Source: an uncultured Actinomycetota bacterium (GTDB lineage Bacteria; Actinomycetota; Actinomycetes; Streptomycetales; Streptomycetaceae). Taken from it: a stretch of DNA of 64,000 bases. A program made the translations under genes and the position numbers. The number at the start of each line of letters is the position of its first letter. Within the stretch, counting starts at the first letter, position 1. Location of the stretch: contig CAVWOS010000009.1 of assembly GCA_963756705.1 (NCBI GenBank), positions 18,120 to 82,119 of the forward strand. The letters run 5' to 3'. This document shows, piece by piece, positions 1,427 to 61,547 of this stretch. The notes below the pieces were generated by a model. That model saw nothing but the letters and a program-made list of their open reading frames with translations, did not search any database and was not told the DNA's origin.

Positions 1427-1482
1427 GGTGGCCCTTTCAGGGATGGGTGGGGTGCGGGTCGGGGCGGGGCAGGGGTGGCCGG

Positions 1483-2068
1483 TCAGGCTGCGCGCCATGC
1501 GTCGTACGCGGCGTAGCGCGCGGTTTCCGCGGCGTCCGTCCAGTGGCCGGAGATGTGCGCGGCGAATTCGACCTTGGTCATGCGCGGCTCGACGTCCGCC
1601 CAGTACCGGCGCAACTCCTCGGATGCGCGGGCGTAGGCCACGTGCGACGGGCCGGAGAACAGCGTCCGGGGGTGGATGCCGGCGGCGGCGGCCTTGCGGC
1701 TGAGCAGTACGCCTCGGCAGTAGTCCTCAGCGTCGCGGTACTGACGCTCGACGAACGCCTCGTACTCCGCCGCCAGCTCCGCGCGGGTGATGGTGCAGGC
1801 GTTCGCGGCGAGATCCGCCTCGCGGTCGGCGAGCCACCGCGCGTCGCTCTCCGCCTCGGCAAGCAGTCGCTCGCCCTGCTTCGCGCATGGCCCGCTCTTC
1901 GTCGGTCTCCGGCACGTAGACGATGACCGGCGGAACCGTCGGCATGAACGCGACCGCCGCGGCGTAGTGGTCCAGCTGCGCATGGGCACGCAGTGCGCGG
2001 ATGTCCATCACAAGATCGCTGATCTCGTCACAGAGTCGCTGCATCGCGTCCGTGGGCAGCAGGTCCAC
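1483..2068 (-). CDS. phage-like hypothetical protein with GIHPRTLFSGP..AYARASEELRRYW motif (frameshift near 1880)
   Basis: GTG at 2068 after a GAGGAGA SD; ORF-track pieces 1727..2263 and 1483..1989 join; motif recalled from actinophage proteins. Confidence 0.55.
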
Positions 2069-2137
2069 AATTCTCCTCAGTGGTTTGTAAACCGGTGAAG
2101 TGGTGTCAGCTAAATGCATGCTCCGCTGGTTTGTCAA
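2063..2137 (-). promoter_or_regulatory. leftward promoter/leader module (TTGACAAACC ... AACCACTGAGGAGAATTGTGGAC)
   Basis: TTGACA -35 at 2137-2132 on the minus strand; SD plus GTG; mirrored at 2689-2756. Confidence 0.55.
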
Positions 2138-2233
2138 CTGGTGAAGTGAAGGGAATTGGCGCCACTCCGGCGCCAGCGGCCCCCGGGTAGTGCGAAAGTC
2201 GGGCCACCGACCCCTCAGAGGGGGGGTCAAAAA

Positions 2234-2377
2234 TGATGTGTCTGGTGTGTCATCGCAGGTCAAAGCCTCGGCTGATGTGTCAGCGACCTACCTCGATCAA
2301 CACATCGCGGCGGCCCGCCGACACATCACTCGAAGGGTCATACTCGGACAAACGACCCCTGCTGACACATCAGCCGA
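2234..2377. repeat. TGATGTGTC/GACACATCA motif array with a perfect 17-bp inverted repeat
   Basis: TCGGCTGATGTGTCAGC 2268-2284 and GCTGACACATCAGCCGA 2361-2377; further copies near 2234, 2299 (variant) and 2320. Confidence 0.85.
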
Positions 2378-2688
2378 CGGTCATGAAAGGCTCTGAATTC
2401 CCTTCGAGCGCACGGCACTCAAGCAATTCCCGGGAGGGATATAAAGCTCAATTGTCAAGTACACGACAGGAAATTGAATCGCAAGCCCCTGGAAATTCCG
2501 ACGACAGTCCGTTCCCATTCCGCCCGCCGGCCGCGCACACCCTCGGCGTGGAGTTAACTTGACATGCTCACAGCAATTACCGGTTCTGGTGGCTCTCTGG
2601 GCGGACCCGCCCGGCAAGCCGCTGTCCCCACCGGACCAAAGGCAGCACCAGACCCATCTTCGCCTCGCACCGGGCGGGACTTCTCTGA

Positions 2689-2756
2689 TTGACAAACCGG
2701 AGAGGTCCCCGAAGGCTGGGCGCAGCGTCAATGAACCACTGAGGAGAGTCGTGGAC
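2689..2756 (+). promoter_or_regulatory. rightward promoter/leader module (TTGACAAACC ... AACCACTGAGGAGAGTCGTGGAC)
   Basis: TTGACA at 2689; SD GAGGAGA at 2741; GTG at 2751. Confidence 0.55.
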
Positions 2757-3464
2757 ACCCTGCTCCCCCTGCTGCCCCCGTCGGACCAGCGCGTGGCCCT
2801 GGGCGGCTTGCGGGCCTGCGGAGACAAGCGCCGCGCCGCCTACCAGGCGGCCCAGGAAGTTCGCCGCGACGTCTCCAGGGCTATCGCCGTCGCCCTCGGC
2901 GCGGGCGCGGCGCCGGCTGACATCGTGCGCATCGCCACCGAGAGCTATTCCCCCGCCCGCGGCGTGCCGTGCTCGGTGCACACGCGGCAGAGCGTGTACA
3001 AGGTCATCAACTCCGCCGAGGACGCCGGGGGCACGCACGCGGCGGCCGGCAGGCCGGGTCCGGACGAAGCGCTCGACGCGCTGGGCCTGGCCGTGCGAAC
3101 GGCCCTCCCGGCGGTCCACGAACACGAGCTGCACCGCGATGTCCTGGCGCGGGTCATGTGGGAGTGCATCGACGCCGGACGCGGGCCGGCCGAGGTAGCC
3201 GGCGCCTGCGGCTTCGCGTCCGCGGCCGCCTACCGGTACCTCGGCCTGCGGGGACGCTGGAACCGCGTGTCCGCCACTCTGGACAAGCACGGGCTGCTCG
3301 CCGCTGATGAGGTGCTGGTCCGCAACTTCGGCACGGGCATCGTGCTCTGCAATGTCGCCCAGGAGCCGCGTGTCCAGCAGCGGCTGCGGGAGTGCCTGGC
3401 CGAGGCAGGCGAGCGGCTGGGCGCCGGCCGGTACGGCGACTGGGCGGCCGTGCACCCCCTTTGA
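2751..3464 (+). CDS. putative DNA-binding protein with two HTH-like segments
   Basis: GAAPADIVRIA..TRQSVYKVI and GRGPAEVAGACGFASAAAYRYL resemble HTH motifs; strong SD. Confidence 0.55.
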   Translation: MDTLLPLLPPSDQRVALGGLRACGDKRRAAYQAAQEVRRDVSRAIAVALGAGAAPADIVRIATESYSPARGVPCSVHTRQSVYKVINSAEDAGGTHAAAGRPGPDEALDALGLAVRTALPAVHEHELHRDVLARVMWECIDAGRGPAEVAGACGFASAAAYRYLGLRGRWNRVSATLDKHGLLAADEVLVRNFGTGIVLCNVAQEPRVQQRLRECLAEAGERLGAGRYGDWAAVHPL

Positions 3465-3765
3465 TGATGGGAAAGCCGCGTGACCGGACAGCACGCGCCG
3501 GGCAGCGCGGACGCCTACCTCGATCGCCGGCGGAACCTCCCCGCGCAGCCCCGCACGATCCCGGCCCCGCGGCGGCGAACCGCGTTCGGTGGAAGGCCCA
3601 GCGCGAGGCCGCCGTTTCCGCCCGGGCGAATCGCCGGCCTGACCGAGCGCAGCCCGCTGGGCGGCGCGGACGAGTACGCCAGCCCGCGGCAACCCGCGGC
3701 CGGGGGCGAGCGAGAGGCCACGCTTCGGCGCGGGCGCCGTGGCGGCGCGCGGTTGTGGCAGTCGT

Positions 3766-3910
3766 CGGTCATGACCGACGACGCCGCCATCGGTCATGAC
3801 CGATGACCGATGCCCTCCCTATCGGTCATGACCGATAGGGCCTGGGCCGTGACCGATCCGGCTTTCCGTGACCGGTCACGATGACCGGTCGGATGTCCGT
3901 CGGGTGACCG
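3766..3910. repeat. CGGTCATGACCG palindrome cluster and TGACCG(A/G) direct repeats
   Basis: 12-bp palindrome at 3766, 3791 and 3823; the third extends to the perfect 24-bp CCCTATCGGTCATGACCGATAGGG (3817-3840). Confidence 0.85.
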
Positions 3911-3959
3911 GCGCCGCCCCGGCACCGGCGCACGCGTGCATCGGTGGTCGGTGTTTCGG

Positions 3960-5839
3960 TCACGGCCGGGAGCGGCCGACCGAGCGGAGATGGGCGCGGC
4001 CTTGTTCGCGTTGCCGCTGCGCGAGGAGGTCTTTCGCCCGCCGCATGTCGCGCTGGCCGGTCGATGGGGACACCTCGTTGCGTCGGGCGGCCTCGGCGCC
4101 GGACAGCCTCTTCCCTGTTGCTTCGGCCTCGGCCAGCCACTGGACGATGCGCTCGATGCGCTGGTCCTCGGTCAGCTCGCTGACCGGTGTCTGGTCGATC
4201 CACTGCTCAGGGGCGCGGGCGGTGGCCTCCGCGGGGTCGGTCGCCGGCGCTTCCCGTCGCGTCCCGGCCGCCGCGTCGCCGGTACGGGCGGCAGGGATGC
4301 CCGGTGTGAGATCGGGGGCGGCGGGGCGCGGCGGCTGTGCGTCTGCGCCGGGCCGCTCAGCAGTGACCCGAGCAGGCGCCCCCGCGGGGTCGGGGTCCGG
4401 GGTGTGATGCATGGCCGGTGCCGTGACCGATGAGGTGATGACCGATTCCGTGACCGGTGCGGACGGTCGGTGGCCGGTGCGCGGTGGCCGGCCGGATCGG
4501 TCATGCCGCGGTCACTGGCATCCGTGACCGATTCCGTGACCGATTCCGTTGTCCACTCCCCCGGGTCCTGCGCGCGACGGCCGGGGTCGCGCACCGTCCC
4601 TGGCGCGACGGCCGCCGTGTCGGGCGCGGGGTGTGCTCCGCGTGCGGGGTGGGCGCGCTCGGTCTCCTCTGGGGGGCCTTCTCCCGCCGGGGTGGGCTGT
4701 GGCCGGAGTGCCTGGAACTGCTGGAGCTGGTGGCTGTTCGGGAAGGCGCTGTACTGCCCCGCGTAGTCGCGGTAGTCCTGGAACCGGGCCTCGCCATCGT
4801 CCCGGCCCGTGGAATCGGTGGCCGGCCGCGCGGAGCGGGCGGCGGCGTCGGGGTGGGTGTCGGGGTCGTGTTCCCGGGCCGGGTGTTCCAACGCCATGCC
4901 GGCGTCAGGGGCTGCGGCGCCGGCGTGTTCCAACCCGATCGGCTCCGTCGGCCTCTGTTCCAACGGCCCTCGTTCCAACGGCGCCGGTTCCAACGGTTCC
5001 GGTTCCAGCGTGGCGGGCGCCGGGCGGTGCGGAAGGGCCGGCCCTTGGATGCCCGCGGCCTCCAGGCCGGCTTCCGCGGTCTCGGTGAGCGGCACCCCGT
5101 AGCGGGCGAGCCGCAGCGGCATGATCGCCTCGATGGGGGCCTTGCGGCGCCACGCGACGCCGTACCGCGCGCGCAGCCTGGCCCGGTACACCAGCCGGTC
5201 CTGCTCGCGCCGGATGACCTCCTCGTACGACCGCAGCTCCCACAGCTTCATCCGGCGCCACAGCCTGAAGGTCGGCAGCGGGGCGAGCAGCCAGCGGGTG
5301 ATGCGGACGCCCTCCATGTGCTTGTCGGCCGTGATGTCGGCGATCCGGCCGATCGCGTGCCGGGCGGCCTCGACCGAGACCACGAAGAGCACGGGGATGA
5401 TCGCGTGCATGCCGACGCCGAGCTTGTCGGGCCAGGCCGCGGCGCCGTTGAAGGCGATCGTCGCGATGGTCAGCAGCCACGCCGTCTGCCGCAGCAGCGG
5501 GAACGGGATGCGCAGCCAGGTCAGCAGCAGGTCGAGCGCCAGCAGCACGACGATCCCCGCGTCGACGCCGATCGGGAAGACGTTGGCAAAAGCGCCGAAG
5601 CCCTTGTGCAGGGCGAGCGTGCGCACCGCCGCGTAGGAACCGGCGAAGCCGATCCCGGCGATCACCACCACGCCGGACACCACAACGCCCACCAAGATCC
5701 GGTGCGTGCGGGTCAAATGCATACCGCTGTGGGGAGGGTTCACTTGCCGGCCGGCTTCCCGCGATAGGCCGCCGGTGTGGAGAGCGGGGGCCGGCGGTTC
5801 CGGGTCCGCGGTGCGCGGCTCGGTGTCCGGCTCGACCAT
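3960..5839 (-). CDS. DUF2637-family (Spd-like) membrane protein with C-terminal HTH (frameshift near 4430)
   Basis: IAGIGFAGSYAAVRTLA..FPIGVDAGIVVLLALDL..RWLLAPLPTFRLWRRMKLWELRSY signature; C-terminal LSGAEAARRNEVSPSTGQRDMRRA HTH in ORF 3960..4412. Confidence 0.8.
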
Positions 5840-8920: not shown

Positions 8921-9441
8921 GACAGGGCCCTCCGGATGTCGGCCAGCCGGTAGGCGGCCGGCCGGCCGGGAACGGCGTCCAGGCGGGTTGTGGGAACGTC
9001 GAGACCGGCCTTCCTCATGTGGCCCCTGAGGGTGCGGCCGACCATCGCCAGCCGGTCTGTGCGGCCGACCCACCGGCCCCACGTCGCCCCGTCGACGGCC
9101 TCCAGCCGGTCAGCGACCCGCGCGACGGTCAGCGCCTGCGGGTTGCCCTCCGCGGCGAAAGCGTCGAGGAGCAGCTTGGCAATCTCGGGCACGTCGGCCC
9201 GCGCGCCGGCGGCGGGGGCGGGCAGGCCCGCGACGGCCCCGCCGATGGGCGCAGGGCCCTTGTTCACGACGCGAACGGACAAGACGTGGCGCGGCTCATC
9301 GTCCTTGGCCGCATCGGCTTCGACAGTGACGACGGCGTCGACGGATGCGTCGGGCAGGGTGAGGGACACCCCGAGGTTGTCGCCGAGGTGCAGGGTCACC
9401 GCGGCGTTGCGGTAACGGGGGTGCGTGATCGGATCGTTCAT
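8917..9441 (-). CDS. chimeric protein: N4/N6-MTase N-terminal fragment fused to a copy of the TraB C-terminal domain
   Basis: VTLHLGDNLGVSLTLPDASVDAVVT (stops just before the expected DPPY) plus a 90-aa domain about 71% identical to the TraB C-terminus. Confidence 0.7.
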   Translation of the reverse strand: MNDPITHPRYRNAAVTLHLGDNLGVSLTLPDASVDAVVTVEADAAKDDEPRHVLSVRVVNKGPAPIGGAVAGLPAPAAGARADVPEIAKLLLDAFAAEGNPQALTVARVADRLEAVDGATWGRWVGRTDRLAMVGRTLRGHMRKAGLDVPTTRLDAVPGRPAAYRLADIRRALS

Positions 9442-9556: not shown

Positions 9557-11650
9557 TCACGGCAGGGCGCTGCGGATGTCGGCCAGCCGGTAGGCGGTCG
9601 GCCGCCCGGGAACGCCATCGAGGCGGATCGTCGGGACGTCGAGACCGGCTTTCCTGAGGCGGTCTTTGAGGGTGCGGCCGATCATCAGGGGTCGGTTCGC
9701 CCGCCCTTCCCACGCGCCGAAGACGGCCTCGTCGGCGGCAACCAGGTGGTCGGCGAGCTGCGCGATGGTCAGCGCCTGCGGGCTGCCCTCCGCCGCGAAG
9801 GCGTCGAGGAGCAGTTTGGCGATCTCCGGGATGCCGGACCGTACTGTGGCGGTGTCGTCGAGGGTCGGCAGGCCCGCGTCGACCCGTTCCTTGGCGCGGG
9901 CGGCCGCGGTGGTTGCGCTGATGGGTGGGACGTAGCGGAGCACCGGGTCGCGGTGTCGGGGGGTGATGCAGTAGAAGCGGCCGGCGTCTGCGGGCTCCCA
10001 CTCGCCAGGGCTGGGGACGAGCAGGTGCGGCAGCCACCCCCGGGAGATGGCGTCGGCCTGGCCGACCACCAGGGGGACGTCGGCCTGCCGGCACGGGAGC
10101 ATGATCCGCACGCCGAACACGTCGGCGACCGCGTCACCGAGGACGTCGGCGGTGGCGTCCTGGGTGCAGACCACCAGGGTCACCCTGGCTTTGCGGCCGA
10201 TGCGCAGCAGGTCCAGGGCGAGCTGCTTGCCGCGTTTGGACAGGCGGGGCCACTCGTCGACGAACGCGATGATCGCCGGGGCGTCGGGGGTGACGGTCCA
10301 GTTGTCCTCGACCGTGCCGAGCGCGGCGATCCGTGCCTCGGCCGTGGCGAGCAGGTGCTCCAGGAGTGCTTCGGCGTCTCTGGGGTTGAGGGCGCGGTGT
10401 GCGGCGCAGGGTCCCAGCGGGCCGAGTCCGCGGCCGGTGGGGTCGATGTCGATGGCGACGGCGTCGGTGCAGGCGGTGACGTAGTCGGCCATCGTGCGGA
10501 CCATCGTGGATTTGCCGCCGCCGGTGTCGGAGACGATCAGAGCGTGCTGTCCGGCCAGCACGACCGGTGTGGCGTCGCCGTCGATGCTGATGCCGATGCT
10601 GACCGGGTCGGTGATCGAGCAGGACAGCGGCGCGCGCAGCGGGGCGGGGGGCGGCGCCGCGAACGGGTCGGACAGCAGGATGCGCAGGGTGATGGCCGCG
10701 CCGTCCTCGGCGCTGGTGCGCTGCGCGAGCAGCCGGTTGTCGCCGACCCGCAGCGTGGTCGCCATCCTGGGCAGCACTCTGATCAGGTCCCCGAGGGTGC
10801 CGCCGGCCAGCACCACCGGCACCGTCCACCCCCAGGCGGTCTCGGCCGGCACGGCGACATCGGCGACCTGCGCGCGCTCCTTGCGCAGGGCCAGGATGAC
10901 GGCCTCGCGGGCCCGGCGGGGGTCCCGGCCGGCTTCGCGGATCGGGAACGGCTCCGGCTCCGGGGGCGCCTCCAGCTCGGTGTGCGCGGGCGGGGACGGG
11001 GGCACGAACAGCAGCTTGGGAACCCGCGGCCGGCGGCGCATCGGCCGACGCCCCTGCACCCACACCAACGCCACCGCGAACACGGCGAACAGCGCGGCAC
11101 AGAGCAGCGCGGCGGGTATCGAGATCCACCACACCCCCACCCACGCGGCCGGCAGTGCCAGCAGCCAGCCGACGGCAGCCAGATGCCGGCGGAAGCGGAC
11201 CTGGCCCCGGCCGATCGCCAGCATGCCGTCGGTCACTTCCAGGTGCCGGAACTCCTCCTGGCCCAGGCGCATCTGGAGCTGCGCCCACTGCATCATCTTG
11301 TAGGAGATCACCGGCGACGCGCCGCCGCCGTACATGCCGTAGCCCCCGCCATAGCCGCCGTAGCCGCCGCGGCTTCGTTGCTGGCGCTGTATCTGCATGC
11401 GCTGCATCTGCATGGCGGTGGCCTGCTTCTGCTGGTTCTTCAGCATGCTGATGTTCTGCGCGACTTCGGCCTGGGTCTTCTGGCGGTCCGCCTTCCACAG
11501 GCGGTACTGGTCGTTGAGGACACGGTGCGCGATGTGCGTGTCGGTCAGGTCCTCGGTACGCCACCAGCGGCCCCATTCGGCCCGCAAGTGGCGTGCTCCG
11601 GCGGACAAGGTGCCGGCCAGGGTGCTGGTGCTGGTGTTGTTGGTGGTCAT
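9557..11650 (-). CDS. traB: FtsK/SpoIIIE-family conjugative DNA translocase (TraB/TraSA-like)
   Basis: two TM helices, GQHALIVSDTGGGKST Walker A variant, FVDEW Walker B, RKARVTLVVCTQ sensor, C-terminal winged-helix-like domain. Confidence 0.8.
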   Translation of the reverse strand: MTTNNTSTSTLAGTLSAGARHLRAEWGRWWRTEDLTDTHIAHRVLNDQYRLWKADRQKTQAEVAQNISMLKNQQKQATAMQMQRMQIQRQQRSRGGYGGYGGGYGMYGGGASPVISYKMMQWAQLQMRLGQEEFRHLEVTDGMLAIGRGQVRFRRHLAAVGWLLALPAAWVGVWWISIPAALLCAALFAVFAVALVWVQGRRPMRRRPRVPKLLFVPPSPPAHTELEAPPEPEPFPIREAGRDPRRAREAVILALRKERAQVADVAVPAETAWGWTVPVVLAGGTLGDLIRVLPRMATTLRVGDNRLLAQRTSAEDGAAITLRILLSDPFAAPPPAPLRAPLSCSITDPVSIGISIDGDATPVVLAGQHALIVSDTGGGKSTMVRTMADYVTACTDAVAIDIDPTGRGLGPLGPCAAHRALNPRDAEALLEHLLATAEARIAALGTVEDNWTVTPDAPAIIAFVDEWPRLSKRGKQLALDLLRIGRKARVTLVVCTQDATADVLGDAVADVFGVRIMLPCRQADVPLVVGQADAISRGWLPHLLVPSPGEWEPADAGRFYCITPRHRDPVLRYVPPISATTAAARAKERVDAGLPTLDDTATVRSGIPEIAKLLLDAFAAEGSPQALTIAQLADHLVAADEAVFGAWEGRANRPLMIGRTLKDRLRKAGLDVPTIRLDGVPGRPTAYRLADIRSALP

Positions 11651-13816: not shown

Positions 13817-15733
13817 ATGCCCACACTCGACGAGGTGATCAACACCATCCCGGGCCTGCACTACGCGGTGCCCCCGGACGGCCCGGCGCGGGCGGCCGTG
13901 ATGGGAGTGCGGTCGACCGGCCACGGTTCCCCCCGACGCTGGGAGAACGGCCGGGAGGTGTCCGGCTGGCGGGGCCTGCTGGCGCTGCTGACCGGCAGCC
14001 CTGTGCAGTACGGCCCCCTGGTCCGCGCGCTGGCCGGCGGCGGCGCGGCGGGGATCGTCTGCGCCGCGCCGGTGCCCGCCGGGCTGGTGTCCGCCGGCCG
14101 TGCCCACCATCTGCCGGTCGTGGAGGTCACCGCTGAGGCGGCATCCGCGGAGTACCTCGCCGAAGCCGTCTTCAGCCTGCGGGACGCCGAGGAGACCGCG
14201 CACGCCAACTCCTTGCAGAAGCAGCTGGACAGCGCTCGGGGGCTACTGACCAGCGCGGGGAAGCAGGACGCCGTTCAGGCGATCCGGCAATGGCTGGAGG
14301 GAGCCGTGGGCGGCGAGGTGATGCTGGTAGCGCCCCATCAGGTGGGGCCCCCGATGCTGCCGTCCGGGCAGATCGTGCCGCGCGAAGAGATCGCCGCCCT
14401 CGCCGAGAGCGGGCAGATCGCGGCGAAGGAGGTGACGGTCGAGGACGGCCTGTCGGTGCGGCTGTCCTCTCTGAGCACCGGCATGCCCCATCATGTGCTG
14501 GCGGTGGCCCGCGAGGGCGGATGGCCGAAGACCGCAGCTGATGCGATAGCCCTGGCCAGCCCGGTGCTTGCCAGCTGGCTTCGGCAGGCCGCCGTCGGCG
14601 ACGCCGAGCGGGTGCCGGCCCGGACTGCGGTGCTCCAGATGCTCCTGGACGAGCAGGTACAACCGGCCCGGGAGGCCGCCAAGGCGATACGCGTCGCCCA
14701 CGCCGTCCTGCACACCGCCGCCCGGGTCAGGGTGTGCGTCATCAGCAGCCCATCGCAGGACATGGTGGTGTCCGCGCTCCATCACCACCTGGGCGACAAG
14801 GCCCTGGTCGTGCCGTACGGGGAGACCATCGTCGCGGTCATCGTGGACGACGAGAAAGTCCTGGCCGCCCTGCGCAGGTACCTCCACCCCCGGCGTGCCT
14901 ACATCGGCGTCAGCGGGCGGCATGCGCTGGACGAGGTCCGGGTGGGACATCTCCACGCGCGCCAGGCCATGGGCGCGGCCACCGACCGGCCGGAGCGGTG
15001 GGCACGATACGTGCCTGTCCTGTCCGATCTGGCCTCCGCGCTTCCCATCGGCCCGGCCTACCGCTGGCAGCAGGACCTCCTCCAGCCGCTGGAGGGTCTG
15101 CGCCCGGCCACGCGTGACCTGTGGCTGGAGACCACCCGCCTGGTCATGACCCACGGCACGTCGGTGGCCGCCGCGACCATGGGGGTGCACTACAACTCGG
15201 TCCGACGCCGCACCGCACAGATCTCCGGGGCACTCGGCCTGGACCCCGGCGACCCCGGCGACAGCATCGTGCTCGACCTGGCGCTGCGCATCCGCCGCCT
15301 GCGGCTGCGGGCACCGGCGCGCTCCACGCCCATCACCCTCGGCGAACTGCTGGAGACCCCGGCGGCGAGCGCCTGGGCCCGCACCATGATCGGCACGCTG
15401 CCCCCGCACCTCCTGGAAATAGTGATCGTCTGGCTCGATGCCTGGGCCGACGGCGCCGACGGCGCCAACGCCCGTGCGGCCGAACGCCTCGGCACCATGC
15501 CCAAAACGCTCCGGCGCCGCCTGCACGAGGCCGAGGCCCTCCTGGGGCGCACCCTGGTCACCAGCGCCCCCCTCGCAGGACCCGACCCGACCCCGGGCCG
15601 GGTCGGCTCGCGGCCGCCCCAACCGCCCAGCACACTCCCCGCCGAGCGCGGAATCAACGACCTCTTCCTGGCCGCGACCATCACCGGCACCCTGCAACGC
15701 CCCGTCCTGACCCCCCGCCACACCCAACGCTGA
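13817..15733 (+). CDS. PucR/CdaR-family transcriptional regulator with two C-terminal HTH domains
   Basis: AAATMGVHYNSVRRRTAQISGALGLD and AAERLGTMPKTLRRRLHEAEALLG; AGGGAG SD before the ATG. Confidence 0.8.
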   Translation: MPTLDEVINTIPGLHYAVPPDGPARAAVMGVRSTGHGSPRRWENGREVSGWRGLLALLTGSPVQYGPLVRALAGGGAAGIVCAAPVPAGLVSAGRAHHLPVVEVTAEAASAEYLAEAVFSLRDAEETAHANSLQKQLDSARGLLTSAGKQDAVQAIRQWLEGAVGGEVMLVAPHQVGPPMLPSGQIVPREEIAALAESGQIAAKEVTVEDGLSVRLSSLSTGMPHHVLAVAREGGWPKTAADAIALASPVLASWLRQAAVGDAERVPARTAVLQMLLDEQVQPAREAAKAIRVAHAVLHTAARVRVCVISSPSQDMVVSALHHHLGDKALVVPYGETIVAVIVDDEKVLAALRRYLHPRRAYIGVSGRHALDEVRVGHLHARQAMGAATDRPERWARYVPVLSDLASALPIGPAYRWQQDLLQPLEGLRPATRDLWLETTRLVMTHGTSVAAATMGVHYNSVRRRTAQISGALGLDPGDPGDSIVLDLALRIRRLRLRAPARSTPITLGELLETPAASAWARTMIGTLPPHLLEIVIVWLDAWADGADGANARAAERLGTMPKTLRRRLHEAEALLGRTLVTSAPLAGPDPTPGRVGSRPPQPPSTLPAERGINDLFLAATITGTLQRPVLTPRHTQR

Positions 15734-16886: not shown

Positions 16887-17706
16887 TCACTGGCAGGGGT
16901 GCTGGAGTCCCGTCCTGCTGCCGGTCACCGCTCCCCCGGCTCGGGTGGGCCCCGTCAGCTCGGGGAGGGCGGCGCGCTGGGCGTGCAGGGCTTTGGCCAG
17001 GGTGGTGACGTAGGCGGTGGCGTGGGCGCGTCCGTCGGGGCCGGGGGTGGCCTGCACGCGCTGGATGAGGGCGGAGCCCACCAGGACGGCGTCGGCCAGG
17101 CGGCTGAGCTGCACGGCCCGGCTCACCTCGCACCGGCCGGCTCCGATCACGACGGGCAGCCGGGTGACGGCCCGGATGCGGGGGACGAAGTCGCGTAGGC
17201 CCGTCAGGTCCGGCCCGCCGGGATACCCGGTGGGCGTGTCGGTGGCGGGGGCGACGATCCAGCCGGTTGCGGCGCGGCACACGGTGGCCAGGCGGGTATC
17301 GGTGGCCCGGCGGAACGCGACGCGCGGGGCGAGCAGCCCGGCCCGGTGTGTGGTGGCGGCCCACAGATCGGCGTGGATCTGGGGCAGGTCAGGGACGGTT
17401 ATCGCGCCCGCGCCGGCTCTGGCCAGCGCGGTCGCGGCGCTGACCGGGCCGACCCGGGCGAGCGCGTCCCAGTGGGCGCGCACGACCACCGGCACCCCGT
17501 GGTGGCTGGTGATCTCGCTGACCGTGGTGATCGCGTCGGCCAGCGCGCTCTCGCCGGTGTGCCGGGCCGGCCCCGCGCCGATCTCCACGTATTCCGCGCC
17601 GGCCTCGATCAGTGGCGTGCAGGGTGCTGATCGCGTCGGTGGTGGTGGGCCAGCCGGCGGGCCAGAACACCCCCAGCACGGGGCCGGCGCGGAGCAGGGT
17701 GGTCAT
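16887..17706 (-). CDS. degenerate tryptophan synthase alpha-subunit-like TIM barrel (frameshift near 17615)
   Basis: LIEAGAEYVEIG, GAITVPDLP, TG, LPVVIGAG, ADAVLVGSALI match the TrpA scaffold; the PFSDPxADG loop is absent. Confidence 0.7.
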
Positions 17707-17871: not shown

Positions 17872-18538
17872 TTAGCGGCCGATGCCTATGGCCTGCTGGA
17901 TCGTGGTGGCGTCGGTGATCGCGCGGAGCATCGCGTCGGCGACGTCGGCCCGGCCGATCGACCGGTAGCGGTAGGGGTTGTGCTCGACGGTGACGCGGTA
18001 GGCGCCGGTGAGGGGCTGGTCGGTCAGCCGCGGCGGGCGCACGACCGTCCAGTCCAGGCCGCTTCCCCGCAGGTCGGCCTCCATCACGGCAAGGTCGGCG
18101 AAGTGGGCGCCGAGGAAGCGGCGGGCGAGCGGGGCGGCCAAGGTAGCGCATGACGGGCCCCTCGGCCGGATCGTGCACGGGCCGGGAGGGTCTGCCGGGC
18201 GAGGGCATGGTCAGCACGAGTACGGAGCTGACCGCCACCACCCGGCGCACGCCCGTGATCTGCATCGCCTCGATCAGCGATCGGGTGCCCGCGGCGGTGA
18301 TCCCGTGGTCGGCCCGGGTGCGCGGCCCGAAGGCCGACAACACCGCGTCGGCGCCCTCCACGGCCTCGGCCAGGGCTGCCGGGTCGGGCGCGGTCAGGTC
18401 CATGCGGACCGATGGGACGGGGTGGGGGAGCAGGGCGGGGGAGCGGACGACGGCGGTCACCTCGTGGCCGCGCTCCAGGGCCTGCTCCAGTAGCTGCCGG
18501 CCGATGCCTCCGGTGGCGGCGATGAGCGTGATCCTCAT
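17872..18538 (-). CDS. NAD(P)H-binding oxidoreductase (flavin/biliverdin reductase B-like; frameshift near 18140)
   Basis: MRITLIAATGGIG Rossmann motif, GADAVLSAFG, LDWTVVRPPRLTD, IGRADVADAML. Confidence 0.85.
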
Positions 18539-19596: not shown

Positions 19597-20817
19597 TCAC
19601 GACGCGCCACCTGTCCCGGGCCCGTCGCCCGTCCCGGACGCGCCGCCCGAGGTGATGTCGCACCGGATGCTCCAGTACAGGCCGTCACATGCGGTGCGGG
19701 TCACGTGCGGCATGGCCACCAGATGCGCCCTGCCGTCCTCCACGGCCAGGTCCCACCAGGCGCACACAGCCGGAGCCGGCGCGTCGAAGCTGACGATGAT
19801 CGACCCGGGTACCCGGTGCGGCCTGACTCCGAGACCCAGGAGGCGGTGATGCGCGTAGGAGGCGACGGACAGGCACTCCTGGACCTGGCGGCGCAACCCG
19901 TCACGGCCCAGATCCCGGAGCGCCACCCACATCAGTGCCGCGGCCAACCCGGAGCGCGAGCAGCCCAGCGTGCGGTCCCGGCCGCCGAGGTACTGCTCCA
20001 CACGGGCGGCCGGCACCAGGTGCTCGCGGGCCAGGACCACACCGCACGGCGTGGGCACGCCCAGGAATTTGTGGCCGCTGATCGTGATGCTGTCGGCCAT
20101 CCCGTCGGCGAACGTCCACCGCGGCGGCGAGGTGAGGAACGGGGCGACCAGCCCGCCCAAAGCGGCGTCGACGTGCACGTAGACCGGGCCGCCCGCGGCG
20201 CGTGCCGCCTCCCGCAGCGCGGGAACGTCGTCGTAGGCGCCGGTGGCGGTGATGCCGATCGTGGCCACCACGATCGCCCCGCCGTCCCGGCGAGCCGTCT
20301 CCCGCCGCAGCGCGGCCGGGTCCATCGTCCCGTCGCCGCGGCCATCGACGACCACCACGTCCATCCCCAACCGGCCGCACGCTTTGCGCACCGAGGAGTG
20401 CGTCGCGGCGGTCGTGTAGACCGGCGCCCGCGGCAGGGCCCGCCGAGCGACGTGGAGCCCGAACTCATTGCCTTCGCTACCGCCGGAGACGATGTAGCCG
20501 TACACATCGGCCCGGGGGATGTCGGTCAGACCGGCGAAGAAGTTGATCACTTCGCGTTCCAGAGCCTTGGTGCCGCCATCGTCCGCATCGGGATCACCGG
20601 CGTTGTTGAAGTGCACCCCGAGCAGGCCAGCGAGGTCGCGAAAATCGGTGGCCCGGTTGCCTGGATAGCCCAGCGATGACCGGTCGCGCTCATGGGCCTG
20701 CTCGGTCAGCCGGCCGATACGGGCCCGGGTGACCACAGGGTCGCCCGGGGCGTCGCCGATCGCGTCATCCAGACCCGCCAGATCCGGGGCCTGTCGGGGA
20801 CGAGGTATGAGAGCCAT
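19597..20817 (-). CDS. PLP-dependent group II decarboxylase (histidine decarboxylase family)
   Basis: SLGYPGN, NNAGDP, GYIVSGGSEGN, HVDAALGG, SGHK (PLP lysine), GCSRSG. Confidence 0.9.
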   Translation of the reverse strand: MALIPRPRQAPDLAGLDDAIGDAPGDPVVTRARIGRLTEQAHERDRSSLGYPGNRATDFRDLAGLLGVHFNNAGDPDADDGGTKALEREVINFFAGLTDIPRADVYGYIVSGGSEGNEFGLHVARRALPRAPVYTTAATHSSVRKACGRLGMDVVVVDGRGDGTMDPAALRRETARRDGGAIVVATIGITATGAYDDVPALREAARAAGGPVYVHVDAALGGLVAPFLTSPPRWTFADGMADSITISGHKFLGVPTPCGVVLAREHLVPAARVEQYLGGRDRTLGCSRSGLAAALMWVALRDLGRDGLRRQVQECLSVASYAHHRLLGLGVRPHRVPGSIIVSFDAPAPAVCAWWDLAVEDGRAHLVAMPHVTRTACDGLYWSIRCDITSGGASGTGDGPGTGGAS

Positions 20818-21033
20818 AGGGCCGCCTTCGGCCAGTGCGGAACGGCCCCGACCGGGGTGTGCTCCGCAGGGATTTATGAGCGGGTGGGGCCCATGCCCGT
20901 GGGCCCCACCCCGGCGAACGGCCGCGCCTGCCAGAACGCACAGCCGAGATGGCCCCCCACTGGGCCACCGCCGTGCCGTCAGACCACCACGACCGCCACA
21001 CCCACACACCGGCCCCGACGCTGAGCGGTGCAC

Positions 21034-21082
21034 CGGATTTGGGGTGCGAACCCTCAATTTGCGGGTTCGCACCCCAAATCCG
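21034..21082. repeat. perfect 20-bp inverted repeat with 9-nt loop
   Basis: CGGATTTGGGGTGCGAACCC / GGGTTCGCACCCCAAATCCG. Confidence 0.9.
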
Positions 21083-21130
21083 ACATGGCGCTCAGCATCC
21101 CGGCACTCCCGGCGCCGCCGGGCCCGCTCC

Positions 21131-21136
21131 TAACGT
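21131..21136 (+). promoter_or_regulatory. putative -10 element (TAACGT) of the tRNA gene
   Basis: 7 nt upstream of tRNA G1. Confidence 0.35.
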
Positions 21137-21143
21137 CGGCCCC

Positions 21144-21227
21144 GCCTGGGTGGCGCAACGGCAGACGCAGCCGATTTAAAACCGGCCGCCCCCCGGGGGC
21201 ATGCGGGTTCGAGTCCCGTCCCAGGCG
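21144..21227 (+). tRNA. bldA-like: tRNA-Leu (anticodon UAA), class II, bldA-like; G73 discriminator, A31-C39 mismatch, CCA not encoded
   Basis: acceptor GCCTGGG/CCCAGGC; D-arm GCG-CAACGGCAGA-CGC; anticodon arm GCCGA-TTTAAAA-CCGGC (TAA at 21177-21179); variable arm GCCCC/GGGGC; T-arm GCGGG-TTCGAGT-CCCGT. Confidence 0.85.
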
Positions 21228-21292
21228 CCCGCCCGGCCCGACTCGGGCCGACCCTCCCGGGCCACCTCACAACCGACTGACGGAGGAGACCG

Positions 21293-22336
21293 ATGACCCA
21301 CCACTCCCACGTGCGGCTCCGCCCCGCCCTGGCCGGCATCGCCGCGGCGGCCGCACTCCTGACAGCAGGCTGCACCGCCGGCCACCACGCCGGCCCACCA
21401 CCTACCAGCTCCCCGACCACCACCGGCCCGACCACAGCGCCAGCCACCGTCGCGCCACCCTCCCCCATGGACGCAGCGGCCATCCTGACCCGCTACATAA
21501 AGATCAACAACCAGGCCAACAAGGAGGTCTCCCCCAAGCTCAACGACACGATCGAGACCGGCGCCCTGCGGGCGCAGTCCCAGGCCGAGTACAAGCAGTA
21601 CCCGATCCTCACCGCCCAGGACCGCAAAGAACTCGGGGCCTTCACCTACGTGAAGCCGCACTTCTACATCCCGCGTCTCCCCGCAGGCCAGGCCCCCTGG
21701 TTCGCCGTCATCGCCCAGGAATCCGACCACAGCTCCAAGAGCACCCACACCACCTACATGATCTTCGTGGAGGAGCACCTCGGCACGTGGCGGATGGCCG
21801 CCGCGACCGAACCCTGGAAAACCCCCACACCGAAAATCGCCCTCGACTCCCACGGCTACGCCACCGCCGTCGACCCCGACAGCACCGGCCTGGCCCTGCG
21901 CCCCTCCCAGCTGTCCGCCGCGGTCACCGACAACTACACGACCGGCGGGAAAGTAGACGGTCAGGTCTTCACCCCTACCGCGCAGACGACCGAGGCGCGC
22001 ACCGAGTACAAGAAGCGCAACAACGGGCTGCTGCCCTACGCGACCGGCACCTACGTCAGCCTCAACGACCCGTATCACGCCACGTCCGTGTGGGCCCTGC
22101 GCACCAGCGACGGGGGCGTCCTGGCCATCTCCTCCAGCGTCCACGGGCTGGCAGAGGTCGCGGAGCCCGGCGGCATCATCACCATCAACCCGGGCGCCCG
22201 CGAGCGCGCGTGGATCACGAGCAAGACGGTGTACTCCCTGACCACCCAGTGGACATGCCTGGACGCCGCAGCCATCCCCACCAGAGGCAAGGCCCGCCTC
22301 CTGGGTTCCGACTGCGAGATCACCGACGCCACCTGA
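21293..22336 (+). CDS. secreted lipoprotein of unknown function
   Basis: lipobox LTAGC, Pro/Thr linker, GGAG SD. Confidence 0.75.
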   Translation: MTHHSHVRLRPALAGIAAAAALLTAGCTAGHHAGPPPTSSPTTTGPTTAPATVAPPSPMDAAAILTRYIKINNQANKEVSPKLNDTIETGALRAQSQAEYKQYPILTAQDRKELGAFTYVKPHFYIPRLPAGQAPWFAVIAQESDHSSKSTHTTYMIFVEEHLGTWRMAAATEPWKTPTPKIALDSHGYATAVDPDSTGLALRPSQLSAAVTDNYTTGGKVDGQVFTPTAQTTEARTEYKKRNNGLLPYATGTYVSLNDPYHATSVWALRTSDGGVLAISSSVHGLAEVAEPGGIITINPGARERAWITSKTVYSLTTQWTCLDAAAIPTRGKARLLGSDCEITDAT

Positions 22337-23151: not shown

Positions 23152-24090
23152 ATGCGAGAAACACAAGCACAGACCGTACAGGTATCGCCGCTTGGCGACG
23201 ACCTGGCGTTCCTCGACATCACCACCGAATGGGACCTTGAGACTCCGTACCACGACTGGCGGGTCTCGATCGTTGTCCCGGACACGTTCCGGCCCAACCC
23301 GCGCACGCCTCGTGTCATTGCCGTCGCGAATCAGAAGGGCGGGACGGGTAAGACGCTGACGGCGTTCGAGCTGGCCATGGCCCTGATCGCCCGGGGTCTG
23401 CGCGTGCGGCTGATCGACGCCGACCCGCAGTCGGCTGCCCTGACCGCATGGCTGATCGCGTGCTTCCCCGAGGGCAAGCGGCGGACGCTGACGGACGTGC
23501 TGATGGAGCGCTGCACGCTCGCCGACGCCACCTATCCGACTCCGTACGCCGGCCTTCACGTGGTCGTCTCCGCCCCCGACCTGGGCGAGGTAGAGAATTC
23601 CCACGAGAAGCCTCCGGGCGTTGAGTCCCTGCTCCAGTACCACCTGAGCGTCGACAAGGACTTCGACGTCACGGTCATCGACTCCGGCCCCAGCCTGGCG
23701 CTGCCCACGGTCGCCGCGTTGGTCGCCGCTCACGACGTGGTGGTCCCCGTCCAGGCCGCGAGCGGGCTGGACGTGAAGGGAGCAGCCTCCCTCCAACAGA
23801 CGATCAAGAGGGTGAGGGGACGCCTCAACCCCGAGCTGCGCGTCGCCGCCACATTCCTGACGGACTTCGACAGGTCGACCCTCGCCCGCACGATAGGAGC
23901 GAGGATGACCAAGGCATTCCCCGGGGCCCTGGTAGTTCCGGTCCGCCGCTCGGTGCGCGTCGGTGAAGCACAACTCGCCATGCAGCCGCTGCGGCTCTTC
24001 GCGCCCGGCACGTCGACCACCCTCGACTACGACCTGGCTGCGGCGCTGCTGACCGGCGGCACGGTCCCGGCACAGAGGACGGCGAGCTGA
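23152..24090 (+). CDS. parA: ParA-family partition ATPase
   Basis: NQKGGTGKT deviant Walker A, LIDADPQ, VIDSGP. Confidence 0.92.
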   Translation: MRETQAQTVQVSPLGDDLAFLDITTEWDLETPYHDWRVSIVVPDTFRPNPRTPRVIAVANQKGGTGKTLTAFELAMALIARGLRVRLIDADPQSAALTAWLIACFPEGKRRTLTDVLMERCTLADATYPTPYAGLHVVVSAPDLGEVENSHEKPPGVESLLQYHLSVDKDFDVTVIDSGPSLALPTVAALVAAHDVVVPVQAASGLDVKGAASLQQTIKRVRGRLNPELRVAATFLTDFDRSTLARTIGARMTKAFPGALVVPVRRSVRVGEAQLAMQPLRLFAPGTSTTLDYDLAAALLTGGTVPAQRTAS

Positions 24091-25301
24091 TGGCGGGATA
24101 CGACGCGAGTAGCGCCCTGGACGACATCTTCGAGAGCTTGGACGAACCCGAGCCGGCAGAAGGCTCGCCCGAGCCGGGAGGTCAGCAGGGGAGCGAGATG
24201 GACGCGGTCGCTGCGCGAACGGAATCCATCCTCGATGCCCGGCCGGCCGAGCCATTCGAGCTGGTCATGAACCTCGCCCGTGGTCTGCCCGATCTGGGCG
24301 ACGTCATGGCTGTGGCCGACGGCGACATGTCGGAGCTGACCGATATCGAGCGGAAGCAGAAGGGGCAGACTGAGAACATCATCCGGGCCGCTGTGGCAGC
24401 GGGGGAGGCGTCGATCTGGGTCGTCGCGGTGGGGCTTCAGGGTGTAGCCAAGGGCCGGTGGTGGCGCAGCACTCACTCCACGTACGAGCAGTATGTGAAG
24501 GATTTCACCGGACGCTCCGCCTCCTACGTCCGTCGGCTGCGGGCTGGTGCTCCCCTGGCCCTGGAGACGGCCGCCCGGACAGGCATCGTGCAGAATCCCG
24601 GCCAGAACCGGGAAGCGCGCAAGGCGGAGCAGCGGTACGGCCAGGACGCCGCCATCCTGCTCTTCCAGGTCGTCGCTGAGGTCACTCAGGAGCTGGGAGA
24701 CAGCGTCACCGCTGAGACGGTGGCCGCGGCGCGGGACGAACTCCCCACCGTGCTCTCCGAGGTTCCGGAGCAGAAGCGGGCCGAGATCGAGCAGGCGACC
24801 CGGCGGGCTCTCGGGCAAGACGTGCCAATTGGCACGCCGACGTTCGACCAAGAATCGAACAGGGGCGTGCCAATTGGCACGCCGACCGGAGAAGCGGGCC
24901 AGGCGCAGCGGCCAGCCACAGACACTGCTCGACCCGAGGACGACTCCGAGGACGACATCCTCGACGCCGAGATCGTGCCCGAGTCGATCGTCACTCTGAA
25001 GGACGCCGCCGCCGCACTCAATGCGCTGAACCGGGCCGTCAGCAAGGACACCTTCGTCCAGGCCGCGAAGGACGCAAACCCGACGGAGTACGCCGACCTC
25101 CGCGCCAAGATCCTGAGCCGGACCACCAGCCTCCAGAAGAAGGCGCTGCACGCTCCGGCCGTCTACGGGTCTGCTCCCGTATGTGAGACCTGCGAGAACG
25201 ACGCCGTGCCCAGCCCGGCGGAAGCCAAGCTCGGCAGGGTCGGCGCCTACTGGTGGTGCGCGACGTGCAAGACCACCCAGGGCGTCCGCGAGGCGCTGTA
25301 G
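24090..25301 (+). CDS. ParA partner, non-canonical centromere-binding candidate with HTH and C-terminal CxxC..CxxC
   Basis: coupled to parA (TGATG); WWRSTHSTYEQYVKDFTGRSASYVRRL HTH-like; CETC..WWCATC. Confidence 0.65.
   Translation: MAGYDASSALDDIFESLDEPEPAEGSPEPGGQQGSEMDAVAARTESILDARPAEPFELVMNLARGLPDLGDVMAVADGDMSELTDIERKQKGQTENIIRAAVAAGEASIWVVAVGLQGVAKGRWWRSTHSTYEQYVKDFTGRSASYVRRLRAGAPLALETAARTGIVQNPGQNREARKAEQRYGQDAAILLFQVVAEVTQELGDSVTAETVAAARDELPTVLSEVPEQKRAEIEQATRRALGQDVPIGTPTFDQESNRGVPIGTPTGEAGQAQRPATDTARPEDDSEDDILDAEIVPESIVTLKDAAAALNALNRAVSKDTFVQAAKDANPTEYADLRAKILSRTTSLQKKALHAPAVYGSAPVCETCENDAVPSPAEAKLGRVGAYWWCATCKTTQGVREAL
24821..24883. repeat. twin AATT-centred palindromes (parS candidate)
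   Basis: CGTGCCAATTGGCACG 24821-24836; GGCGTGCCAATTGGCACGCC 24864-24883. Confidence 0.85.
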
Positions 25302-38967: not shown

Positions 38968-39494
38968 GGAACAACTCAGCAGCGACGCTGCCTTCCGACG
39001 GACCCAAGCCTCCGTACCTGATGGCCGCTGACCGTCTCCGGCTGGAGATCCGCGCCGGCCGCTACAAGCCCGGCGACCGGCTCCCGTCATCGCGCGAGCT
39101 GCGGGGGAGCCTGGGCATCGCGAACGCCACGGTGCGCGCGGCGCTCCGGGTCCTGCGGCAGGAGGGACTGGTCTACTCGGTCCAGGGGCGCGGCACCTAC
39201 GTGGCAGATCCTGCCATGCCCCCTGACGGTGCCCACAGCCCAGCAGCCACCTTGGCCCTGGTTATGGAAGTGCGGGACGAAGTGCGGCGCATCGGGGACG
39301 TGGTGACCGATCTCCGGGCGCGCGCTGAGGTTCCCGGAGTGCTGGGGCCGCGGCAAGGGAAATATTGGGACCTTGTGAGCGCTCTCCGGGTGGGCGGCGT
39401 TTCCGGCACGCATGTCCCTGCCCCTCCGGGACGATGCCCGGTTGATGTCGGTTTCCCGGCGATTGGGGGCCGCAAATGCCGTATATTGGTGTAG
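38964..39494 (+). CDS. GntR-family winged-HTH regulator
   Basis: YKPGDRLPSSREL..GIANATVRAALRVLRQEGLVYSVQGRGTYV. Confidence 0.85.
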   Translation: MRNNSAATLPSDGPKPPYLMAADRLRLEIRAGRYKPGDRLPSSRELRGSLGIANATVRAALRVLRQEGLVYSVQGRGTYVADPAMPPDGAHSPAATLALVMEVRDEVRRIGDVVTDLRARAEVPGVLGPRQGKYWDLVSALRVGGVSGTHVPAPPGRCPVDVGFPAIGGRKCRILV

Positions 39495-39534
39495 GAGTCA
39501 TCTGATCTCGGCGTGGTCGAGCAGCAGGCGAGAA

Positions 39535-61260: not shown

Positions 61261-61547
61261 TCGAACACCCCGGGGTCGGCGCCCTCGTCGTGCGGCGGCG
61301 GGCTTTTCGGGTCGCCGTCGGGGTTGGTCTTCTGCGAGGTCGACATCGTGGTGAGCGGGGTGCCGTCGGCGAACGCGGCGGTCTGGGTGACCGGGTCGTA
61401 CACCGGCAGCGGCGCGACGGCCCCGGGTGCCCGGGGCGGGCCTGCGGGGGTCAGGTGGGCGCCGGTCACGGCGTACGGGCGGAGGGCGGCCGGTCGGCCG
61501 GCGGTCGGCGCGGGCGCCTGGAGGGGAAACGGCTGGGCGAGCTTCAC
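61257..61547 (-). CDS. tgmA: graspetide precursor peptide
   Basis: leader LRPY..YDPVTQTA; core TTMSTSQKTNPDGDPKSPPPHDEGADPG; coupled to the ligase. Confidence 0.8.
   Translation of the reverse strand: MKLAQPFPLQAPAPTAGRPAALRPYAVTGAHLTPAGPPRAPGAVAPLPVYDPVTQTAAFADGTPLTTMSTSQKTNPDGDPKSPPPHDEGADPGVFE

Follow-up and report, generated by a model that had tools for sequence, protein, structure and literature searches.

A tRNA-Leu(UAA) gene on probable Streptomyces plasmid DNA resembles tRNAs of mobile elements rather than bldA

UUA acts as a switch in Streptomyces: about 2-3% of genes, adpA and numerous regulators of antibiotic pathways among them, contain a TTA codon and depend on a single tRNA with developmentally timed activity. 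Extra copies of bldA, the gene for this tRNA, are an existing engineering trick. The chromosomal gene (SCOt24 in S. coelicolor) is transcribed early, its product owes part of its late activity to modification by MiaA/MiaB (PMC10732093), and BldD and AdpA act on bldA transcription (PMC4255298). Two other described systems come close: the rare-codon tRNAs of phages and plasmids, which are accessory and mobile, duplicate a host isoacceptor and decode a codon ending in A or U, and tRNA-Asp-AUC of desert Streptomyces, an accessory, non-core tRNA with an imperfect anticodon stem that raises translation of a disfavoured codon when expressed (PMC9262613). Here we analyse a 64-kb stretch of DNA (the window; contig CAVWOS010000009.1 of an uncultured member of the Streptomycetaceae) that carries a class II, 84-nt tRNA-Leu(UAA) gene at 21144-21227 on the + strand. 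The window tRNA has all the listed properties of the phage and plasmid tRNAs, yet its codon is a regulatory checkpoint in Streptomyces, beyond being a slow codon. Like tRNA-Asp-AUC it is accessory, non-core and imperfect in the anticodon stem; it differs in amino acid and codon, and the function of tRNA-Asp-AUC was shown by experiment. The window gene is genuine and complete, and we regard it as probably an accessory tRNA-Leu(UAA) in a plasmid backbone, a member of a lineage of mobile-element tRNAs (lineage A) and a working UUA decoder, most likely one that would be expressed independently of chromosomal bldA.

ARAGORN calls a single tRNA in the window, a tRNA-Leu with anticodon taa at 21143-21230(+), and the Rfam tRNA model RF00005 matches 21144-21227(+) over its full length (model positions 1-71) with 43.9 bits and E=4.9e-06, above the gathering score of 29. 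A sequence-only reading of this DNA had proposed a complete class II cloverleaf with a UAA anticodon, a Leu-type D loop and an A15-U48 pair, and had suggested ARAGORN as a check; the program returns tRNA-Leu(taa), the Rfam match has exactly the ends first proposed, and each of these features is borne out. The cloverleaf, with its conserved positions, consists of a 7-bp acceptor stem (GCCUGGG/CCCAGGC), U8, a 3-bp D stem with C13.A22, a D loop of AACGGCAGA that contains A14, A15, G18 and G19, an anticodon loop UUUAAAA that presents U33 and the anticodon U34 A35 A36 (21177-21179), a 16-nt variable region forming a 5-bp GC stem with a 3-nt loop and followed by U48, and a T arm (GCGGG/UUCGAGU/CCCGU). 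The UAA anticodon and the long variable arm with its own stem are those of a class II tRNA-Leu(UAA), and the core is leucine-type, combining the 3-bp D stem, A14, A15 with U48 and the D-loop motif GGYAGAC, which is also present in 119 pattern-recovered housekeeping tRNA-Leu(UAA) genes among the matches listed. CCA is not encoded, CCC coming directly after the discriminator. Two positions that the sequence-only reading had left unremarked depart from the tRNA-Leu standard: the discriminator is G73 instead of the usual A73, and pair 31-39, which closes the anticodon loop, is an A31.C39 mismatch, leaving the anticodon stem short of five standard pairs.

The minimum free energy (MFE) structure differs from the cloverleaf (-41.5 versus -38.6 kcal/mol, z-score -1.6). 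A non-cloverleaf MFE is common among GC-rich tRNAs, and we judge MFE folding uninformative here. The gene is more than a chance fold: an independent assembly, Logan contig L005 from a different run, carries it with a single C-to-T change in the variable-arm loop, and its family covaries. The call draws on ARAGORN, Rfam, cloverleaf energy and family covariation.

For the comparison with bldA, the ends of that gene were taken from quantitative PCR primers for S. coelicolor SCOt24 (PMC5065882). A metagenome scan with the 5' primer yields 69 loci, 65 of which carry one highly conserved tRNA; its consensus, GCCCGGATGGTGGAATGCAGACACGGCGAGCTTAAACCTCGCTGCCCCTTCGCGGGCGTGCCGGTTCAAGTCCGGCTCCGGGCA, agrees with the reverse primer (PMC5065882) and with the variable-loop pairing in PMC6614811. 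The window tRNA has the anticodon and the class II architecture with a long variable arm in common with bldA and would decode UUA as bldA does, and the same charging by leucyl-tRNA synthetase (LeuRS) and the same A37 modification would serve both, but it is only 68% identical to the consensus. The acceptor stem (GCCCGGA/UCCGGGC in bldA), the T stem (GCCGG/CCGGC in bldA), the anticodon loop (CUUAAAC in bldA) and the discriminator (A73 in bldA) all differ, as does the D loop, where canonical bldA has a single G at the place normally held by G18G19. The A31.C39 mismatch occurs in none of the 65 canonical bldA genes, and the two genes differ in location, plasmid versus chromosome. The Rfam tRNA model misses canonical bldA even at E<=1 (L143 3755-3838 and other loci of L132-L200), although ARAGORN does call it. 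Canonical bldA is an odd tRNA, beside which the window tRNA looks generic.

A chromosomal bldA copy captured by the plasmid would have the same anticodon and class II architecture, and true bldA-derived copies do occur on other Streptomyces plasmids (copy b of pSITFR-21a, a 325-kb linear plasmid, NZ_CP134606.1, L001; about 13 PLSDB records). Against such a capture stand the 68% identity, the differences in acceptor stem, D loop, anticodon loop and T stem, and the match to an Rfam model that leaves canonical bldA undetected, and we consider it highly improbable. The label bldA-like, as first applied to this gene, therefore holds for the anticodon and not for descent (68% identity to bldA against 76-85% to phage and plasmid tRNAs); with only the anticodon in common with bldA, the window tRNA is by descent a member of a mobile-element lineage.

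That lineage is found on several kinds of element. The window tRNA is 85% identical to the tRNA of an IMG/VR contig (L007), 80% to that of a 93-kb circular plasmid of S. platensis, which is phage-plasmid-like (RusA, HNH, WhiB and SSB genes), and 76% to those of a 90-kb phage-plasmid of S. janthinus and pSITFR-21a copy c; identity to the commonest Chloroflexota housekeeping tRNA-Leu(UAA) is 75%. Capsid and tail genes are present in the S. janthinus record, as are DUF2637 and a conjugative DNA-transfer protein of the type IV secretion family, and among the genes of the lineage-A contigs of IMG/VR are those for phage replication initiators, DNA methyltransferases and a RecE-like exonuclease, together with an excisionase-like gene. 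On some IMG/VR contigs the lineage-A tRNA lies beside tRNA-Arg(UCU), tRNA-Ile(UAU) and tRNA-Val(UAC), which form the classic set of rare-codon tRNAs where the host is high in GC. The window tRNA has the D, anticodon and T arms common to the lineage, the 70-85% identity, the plasmid or phage surroundings and the compensatory changes. In an alignment of 14 lineage-A sequences, 95.7% of stem cells are standard pairs and compensatory double changes appear in 9 of 20 pairs, a result approached by none of 500 shuffles and by no slid register. This covariation indicates that lineage A is a functional tRNA family. By sequence the window tRNA belongs by descent to this lineage, which circulates on Streptomyces plasmids, phage-plasmids and prophage-like contigs and resembles ordinary bacterial tRNA-Leu(UAA), not the atypical chromosomal bldA.

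A scan of genome contigs with the lineage-A D-arm and anticodon pattern recovers at least 119 loci, mostly Chloroflexota housekeeping tRNA-Leu(UAA) genes, with none from Streptomyces among the matches listed. Cultured phages searched with the window tRNA and its nearest relative give generic 72-81% matches to tRNA-Leu genes of unrelated phages and no Streptomyces phage. The 30-nt motif that spans the D arm and anticodon arm of the Streptomyces mobile tRNAs recurs without change in the housekeeping tRNA-Leu(UAA) of many Chloroflexota (Limnocylindria, Tepidiforma) and of some other phyla (L013-L131), and is thus generic.

The LeuRS of S. coelicolor does not use A73, an A73G change keeping 66% of kcat/Km, and charges E. 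coli tRNALeu(UAA) at a rate similar to bldA tRNA; it requires U8-A14, the G18G19-U55C56 elbow, U54-A58, nucleotide 48 and a variable loop of at least 5 nt (PMC6614811). Checked against that list, the window tRNA contains every published determinant. Insertion of G19 into bldA raises both charging and actinorhodin production (PMC6614811), and in the window tRNA both G18 and G19 are native. Despite G73, it is plausible that a Streptomyces LeuRS can leucylate it. The sequence A36 A37 A38 provides a MiaA-type context for modification of A37.

In bacteria, a G73 and a class II architecture are typical of seryl tRNAs. With the loop-closing pair also unpaired, the gene might encode a recoding or mis-decoding tRNA, charged by seryl-tRNA synthetase or another synthetase, or frameshifting at UUA through an effective loop of 9 nt; mistranslating tRNA families are known from Streptomyces (PMC10404621). 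The tRNA is, however, leucine-type and not serine-type in its D arm, at A15-U48 and in its acceptor pairs C2-G71 and C3-G70, most relatives have A73, and the window shows no gene for a dedicated synthetase, which together make mis-decoding very unlikely.

As a working decoder, the window tRNA would be transcribed from its own weak promoter, with TAACGT as -10 element, or by read-through, after which its 3' end would be trimmed and CCA added. The host LeuRS would charge it with leucine, MiaA and MiaB would modify A37, and the tRNA would insert Leu at UUA codons. We infer both expression and charging along these lines. UUA-decoding capacity would be gained outside the transcriptional inputs of chromosomal bldA, in that a plasmid copy would bypass BldD and AdpA, but not the A37 modification step. 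The independence from host timing foreseen by the sequence-only reading is therefore only partly implied: the transcriptional inputs would be avoided, and MiaA/MiaB would still be required.

The DNA around the tRNA is of plasmid type. Genes were called by third-position GC in the window (72% G+C), giving 48 predicted genes with 14,736 codons, and were annotated with Pfam and NCBIfam. A spacer of 400 nt holds the tRNA, with a divergent pyridoxal-phosphate (PLP)-decarboxylase gene on its left (19597-20736, -) and a SCO2278-family-like lipoprotein gene on its right (21293-22336, +; 84.9 bits to NCBIfam NF053531, short of the curated cutoff; DUF8094 in L005). The lipoprotein gene begins 66 nt downstream of the tRNA, has the ribosome-binding site GGAGGAG and is possibly co-transcribed with the tRNA. 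The partition ATPase gene parA (23152-24090, +; Pfam AAA_31 at 1e-34, CbiA, MipZ) follows 1.9 kb downstream of the tRNA and places it beside the plasmid backbone. The parA stop codon is overlapped by an open reading frame (ORF; 24090-25301, +) that matches no Pfam or NCBIfam family, is 98.5% identical in L005 and encodes a candidate partner protein; an MmyB-type regulator gene comes next. This block, from an upstream palindrome through the tRNA, lipoprotein gene, parA and the ORF to the MmyB-type gene, is also present in L005, whose ParA is identical to that of the window and whose lipoprotein differs by 6% at the amino-acid level.

Further left lie genes for a DUF2637 protein (4172-5839, -; Pfam 9e-45), a D12 DNA methyltransferase, an AAA_10/TraB-like ATPase of the plasmid transfer backbone (9557-11650, -; Pfam AAA_10; NCBIfam plasmid_TraB weakly, at 42.6 bits), an SH3 protein and a PucR-type regulator. 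More than 100 Streptomyces plasmids share the DUF2637 gene at 81-87% nucleotide identity, and megablast of positions 1-25000 returns 119 Streptomyces plasmid records, nearly all of them, among the matches listed, on this gene. For 13 of the window genes a homologue, at up to 84% amino-acid identity, lies within the leftmost 37 kb of pSITFR-21a, and the TraB-like ATPase is 79% identical to its homologue there (tblastn). We accept the tRNA as plasmid-borne because of the plasmid gene content, the synteny with pSITFR-21a and the block kept in L005; it probably sits on a Streptomyces plasmid backbone, probably that of a large conjugative plasmid, although the window, being a 64-kb stretch and not a full replicon, may be plasmid DNA integrated in a chromosome arm. 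The plasmid-type surroundings agree with the earlier placement of the gene on a mobile element and not at the chromosomal bldA locus. Its description as cargo is doubtful, and we do not adopt it because the tRNA is linked to the partition locus in a block kept in a second assembly.

Several observations weigh against a working decoder. A31.C39 occurs only in the window tRNA and L005: none of 12 other lineage-A tRNAs has it, and a 31-39 mismatch is found in 0 of 184 reference tRNAs (119 housekeeping tRNA-Leu(UAA) genes, among the matches listed, and 65 bldA). A single transition separates it from the A-U pair of many relatives. The Rfam score is about 9 bits under those of the closest relatives (43.9 versus 52-54), and bldA1 (G28A), a single anticodon-stem mutation, inactivates bldA (PMC11836424). 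Between the window and L005 the tRNA changes at 1 of 84 nt and the upstream spacer at about 5 of 253, so the tRNA is not better conserved than its flank. The left neighbours of the tRNA are gene fragments, pieces of TrpA and of an NAD-binding domain, and its neighbourhood is for that reason taken to be decaying. A stricter sigma-70 scan finds no promoter, and no intrinsic terminator is found, at the tRNA locus, and the tRNA region was found in no RNA-seq run, the DNA runs with it representing only the sibling plasmid.

Codon usage points the same way. One TTA codon in 14,736 (0.07 per 1000), in 1 of 48 genes called by a method that favours GC-rich third positions and might slightly under-call TTA-rich genes, equals the chromosomal background and leaves no excess for which the tRNA would be needed; the 7,826 genes of S. 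coelicolor contain 155 TTA codons (PMC9262613), and 1.7-3.4% of chromosomal genes contain TTA across species (PMC6662830). The codon is number 109 (60934-60936) of an MvdD-like ATP-grasp gene (60310-61260, -; Pfam ATPgraspMvdD), the only TTA gene of the window in this census, 39 kb from the tRNA, and the sequence-only reading's suggestion that the element carries TTA cargo of its own finds no footing in it. The first 50 kb of the S. janthinus phage-plasmid likewise shows no excess, with TTA in 2 of 70 annotated coding sequences, both of them (a NERD-domain gene and a LuxR regulator gene) within 5 kb of its tRNA, and the pSITFR-21a arm has no TTA codon among its predicted genes. The pattern is clear: the tRNA-bearing elements do not need the tRNA for bulk translation. 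Their genes do not exceed the TTA background, so the usual codon-compensation argument is not obviously applicable; if the tRNA is useful, its use would lie in a few regulators or in action on the host.

These findings could reflect a decaying, crippled copy, in which a functional mobile ancestor was made poor or inert by a U39-to-C change, giving A31.C39, and by G73, and now hitch-hikes beside the partition locus. The mismatch unique to the window/L005 allele among 196 compared tRNAs (counting the matches listed), the lowered Rfam score, the neighbouring fragments, the missing TTA demand, the conservation no better than that of the flank and the null phenotype of the bldA1 stem mutation (PMC11836424) all fit this explanation. 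It is opposed by the integrity of the remaining stems and of all tertiary positions, by the ability of A.C to form a wobble-like pair, and by the persistence of the mismatch allele in two plasmids diverged enough that their lipoproteins differ by 6%. Two published results oppose it as well: tRNA-Asp-AUC, with two unpaired anticodon-stem positions, is functional and boosts Streptomyces antibiotic production (PMC9262613), and G73 is tolerated by S. coelicolor LeuRS (PMC6614811). We consider a crippled copy unlikely, while giving it more weight than any other alternative to a working UUA decoder.

Upstream of the tRNA, a -10-like hexamer, TAACGT (21131-21136, +), lies 7 nt before the mature 5' end and is kept in L005. 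In a motif scan it is the sole TANNNT within 20700-21400 (window background 0.48 per kb), and it is a possible promoter for a leaderless or near-leaderless tRNA transcript; the -10-like box noted earlier is present, though the strict sigma-70 scan gives no full promoter around it. The chromosomal bldA locus is controlled by BldD and AdpA; simple motif scans, which are weak tests, find no BldD-box or AdpA consensus in 20700-21400. A 93-nt inverted repeat with 46-nt arms (21012-21104) ends 40 nt upstream of the tRNA, between it and the PLP-decarboxylase gene, and is kept in L005; its core, a perfect 19-nt repeat of GGATTTGGGGTGCGAACCC, lies at 21035-21053 and 21063-21081. The repeat is unique in the window, where 0.01 would be expected by chance, has no copy in PLSDB and is shared among 200 loci only by L005; an operator, a terminator and a partition or replication site are candidate roles. 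Directly 3' of the tRNA, a GC hairpin with a 6-bp stem and no T tract is read from the sequence (21234-21250, +), but the scan for intrinsic terminators does not report it.

Between the tRNA 3' end and this hairpin, L005 and the window differ by a 42-nt indel that starts after 21231, 4 nt past the end of the gene. tRNA genes are classic integration targets, and an indel at this place would suit a present or former attachment site of an integrating element, as opposed to a working gene. Such a remnant is unlikely in the extreme, because the gene is full-length with its 5' half intact, no second copy of its 3' half occurs in the window, and the Pfam-scanned window genes, including those within 5 kb, contain no integrase or recombinase domain.

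Plasmid tRNAs with a UAA anticodon also form a second lineage (lineage B), represented by pSITFR-21a copy b, which is 81% identical to bldA and shares its stems. BLAST with copy b returns 13 Streptomyces plasmid records in PLSDB, and ARAGORN finds tRNA-Leu(taa) on 4 of the 5 lineage-B plasmids sampled. Members on pSITFR-21a and on plasmids of S. anulatus, S. microflavus and Streptomyces sp. MMBL 11-1 would be plasmid-borne UUA decoders like the window tRNA, which itself stands outside lineage B and outside its gene module. At least 16 Streptomyces plasmid records in PLSDB match lineage A (four plasmids) or lineage B, with the UAA anticodon confirmed on 8; plasmid UAA tRNAs are thus recurrent, not unique, and the sequence-only reading is to be corrected in this respect. 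PLSDB gene tables omit RNA genes, which may explain why these tRNAs are overlooked. The searchable literature yielded nothing specific on plasmid- or phage-borne bldA or tRNA-Leu(UAA) in Streptomyces, and a 2026 survey that reports tRNA genes on 6.66% of 61,961 plasmids leaves Streptomyces unmentioned (bioRxiv 10.64898/2026.09.01.748738).

A bolder proposal, which we hold to be doubtful, is that mobile elements of Streptomyces acquired UUA-decoding tRNAs at least twice independently, as a generic-like lineage that includes type I-length variants only a Streptomyces-type LeuRS could charge and as a bldA-derived lineage, that these tRNAs override the bldA/TTA checkpoint, and that the window gene is a working example. 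If so, plasmid acquisition would alter sporulation and antibiotic timing. More generally, a transmissible second UUA tRNA could shift the timing of antibiotics and spores in recipient strains and would offer a ready natural means of awakening gene clusters that are silent; how strongly TTA genes would respond, and any benefit to the plasmid, are matters of inference. Rewiring of host development by the window tRNA is speculative, given an element without TTA demand and an unusual stem defect. The window gene joins a known class of mobile-element tRNAs and is notable for the role of UUA and for the recurrence of UUA-reading tRNA genes, in two lineages, on Streptomyces plasmids and phage-like elements. 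It is less striking than first proposed, being neither a bldA copy nor unique, and having no TTA demand and a defective stem.

The tRNA-bearing plasmids show further variety. pSITFR-21a has three UAA-anticodon tRNAs within 11 kb (9225-9300(+), 18323-18407(-) and 20001-20075(+)) and carries both lineages: two copies are of type I length and lineage A, one with C33 for U33 and the other pairing better with an 8-nt loop, and the third is bldA-derived and class II, with G73. None of the three is syntenic with the window tRNA. Type I-length lineage-A members, with a variable loop of 5-8 nt, are also found at L002 58-132, L004 8001-8077, L010 5295-5372 and L011 14161-14238. The LeuRS of S. coelicolor is unusual in charging a type I tRNA-Leu(CAA) (PMC6614811), a conceivable chromosomal source of these type I-length relatives; the loci compared contain no tRNA-Leu(CAA) sequence. 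L004, a plasmid of Streptomyces sp. NBC_00829, also carries a group II intron catalytic domain (14799-14892(-); RF00029, 43.8 bits); genes for a maturase and a reverse transcriptase adjoin it, and the tRNA is about 7 kb away.

On large linear plasmids of S. anulatus, Streptomyces sp. MMBL 11-1 and S. microflavus (L201-L204, about 800-4200 in each), the bldA-derived tRNA lies in a conserved module. Its order is helix-turn-helix protein, ATP-binding protein, ScbR-family autoregulator receptor, tRNA and 'PhlD', with the receptor annotated as TetR/AcrR in L204 and 'PhlD' unannotated in L203. This module, seen on the sampled plasmids other than pSITFR-21a, puts a UUA decoder beside a gamma-butyrolactone-type receptor gene.

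Within the window, a tryptophan synthase alpha chain gene (16887-17588(-)), an NAD(P)H-binding protein gene (17872-18141(-)) and a periplasmic binding protein remnant in an ABC transporter operon (51055-51546(-)) are truncated and match their Pfam profiles only in part, which suggests pseudogene debris around the tRNA and in the transporter operon. The MvdD-like gene belongs to a cluster (59159-61547(-)) of the type that makes ribosomally synthesized and post-translationally modified peptides, with an Actino_peptide-like small ORF, the MvdD-type ATP-grasp and a PCMT-type protein-isoaspartate methyltransferase homologue; it resembles a graspetide-type cluster with an O-methyltransferase. Two convergent paralogues of about 1000 aa each (39412-42492(+) and 42572-45628(-)) encode PAS-GAF-SpoIIE phosphatase-HATPase proteins, and a homologue on pSITFR-21a adjoins tRNA copy c.

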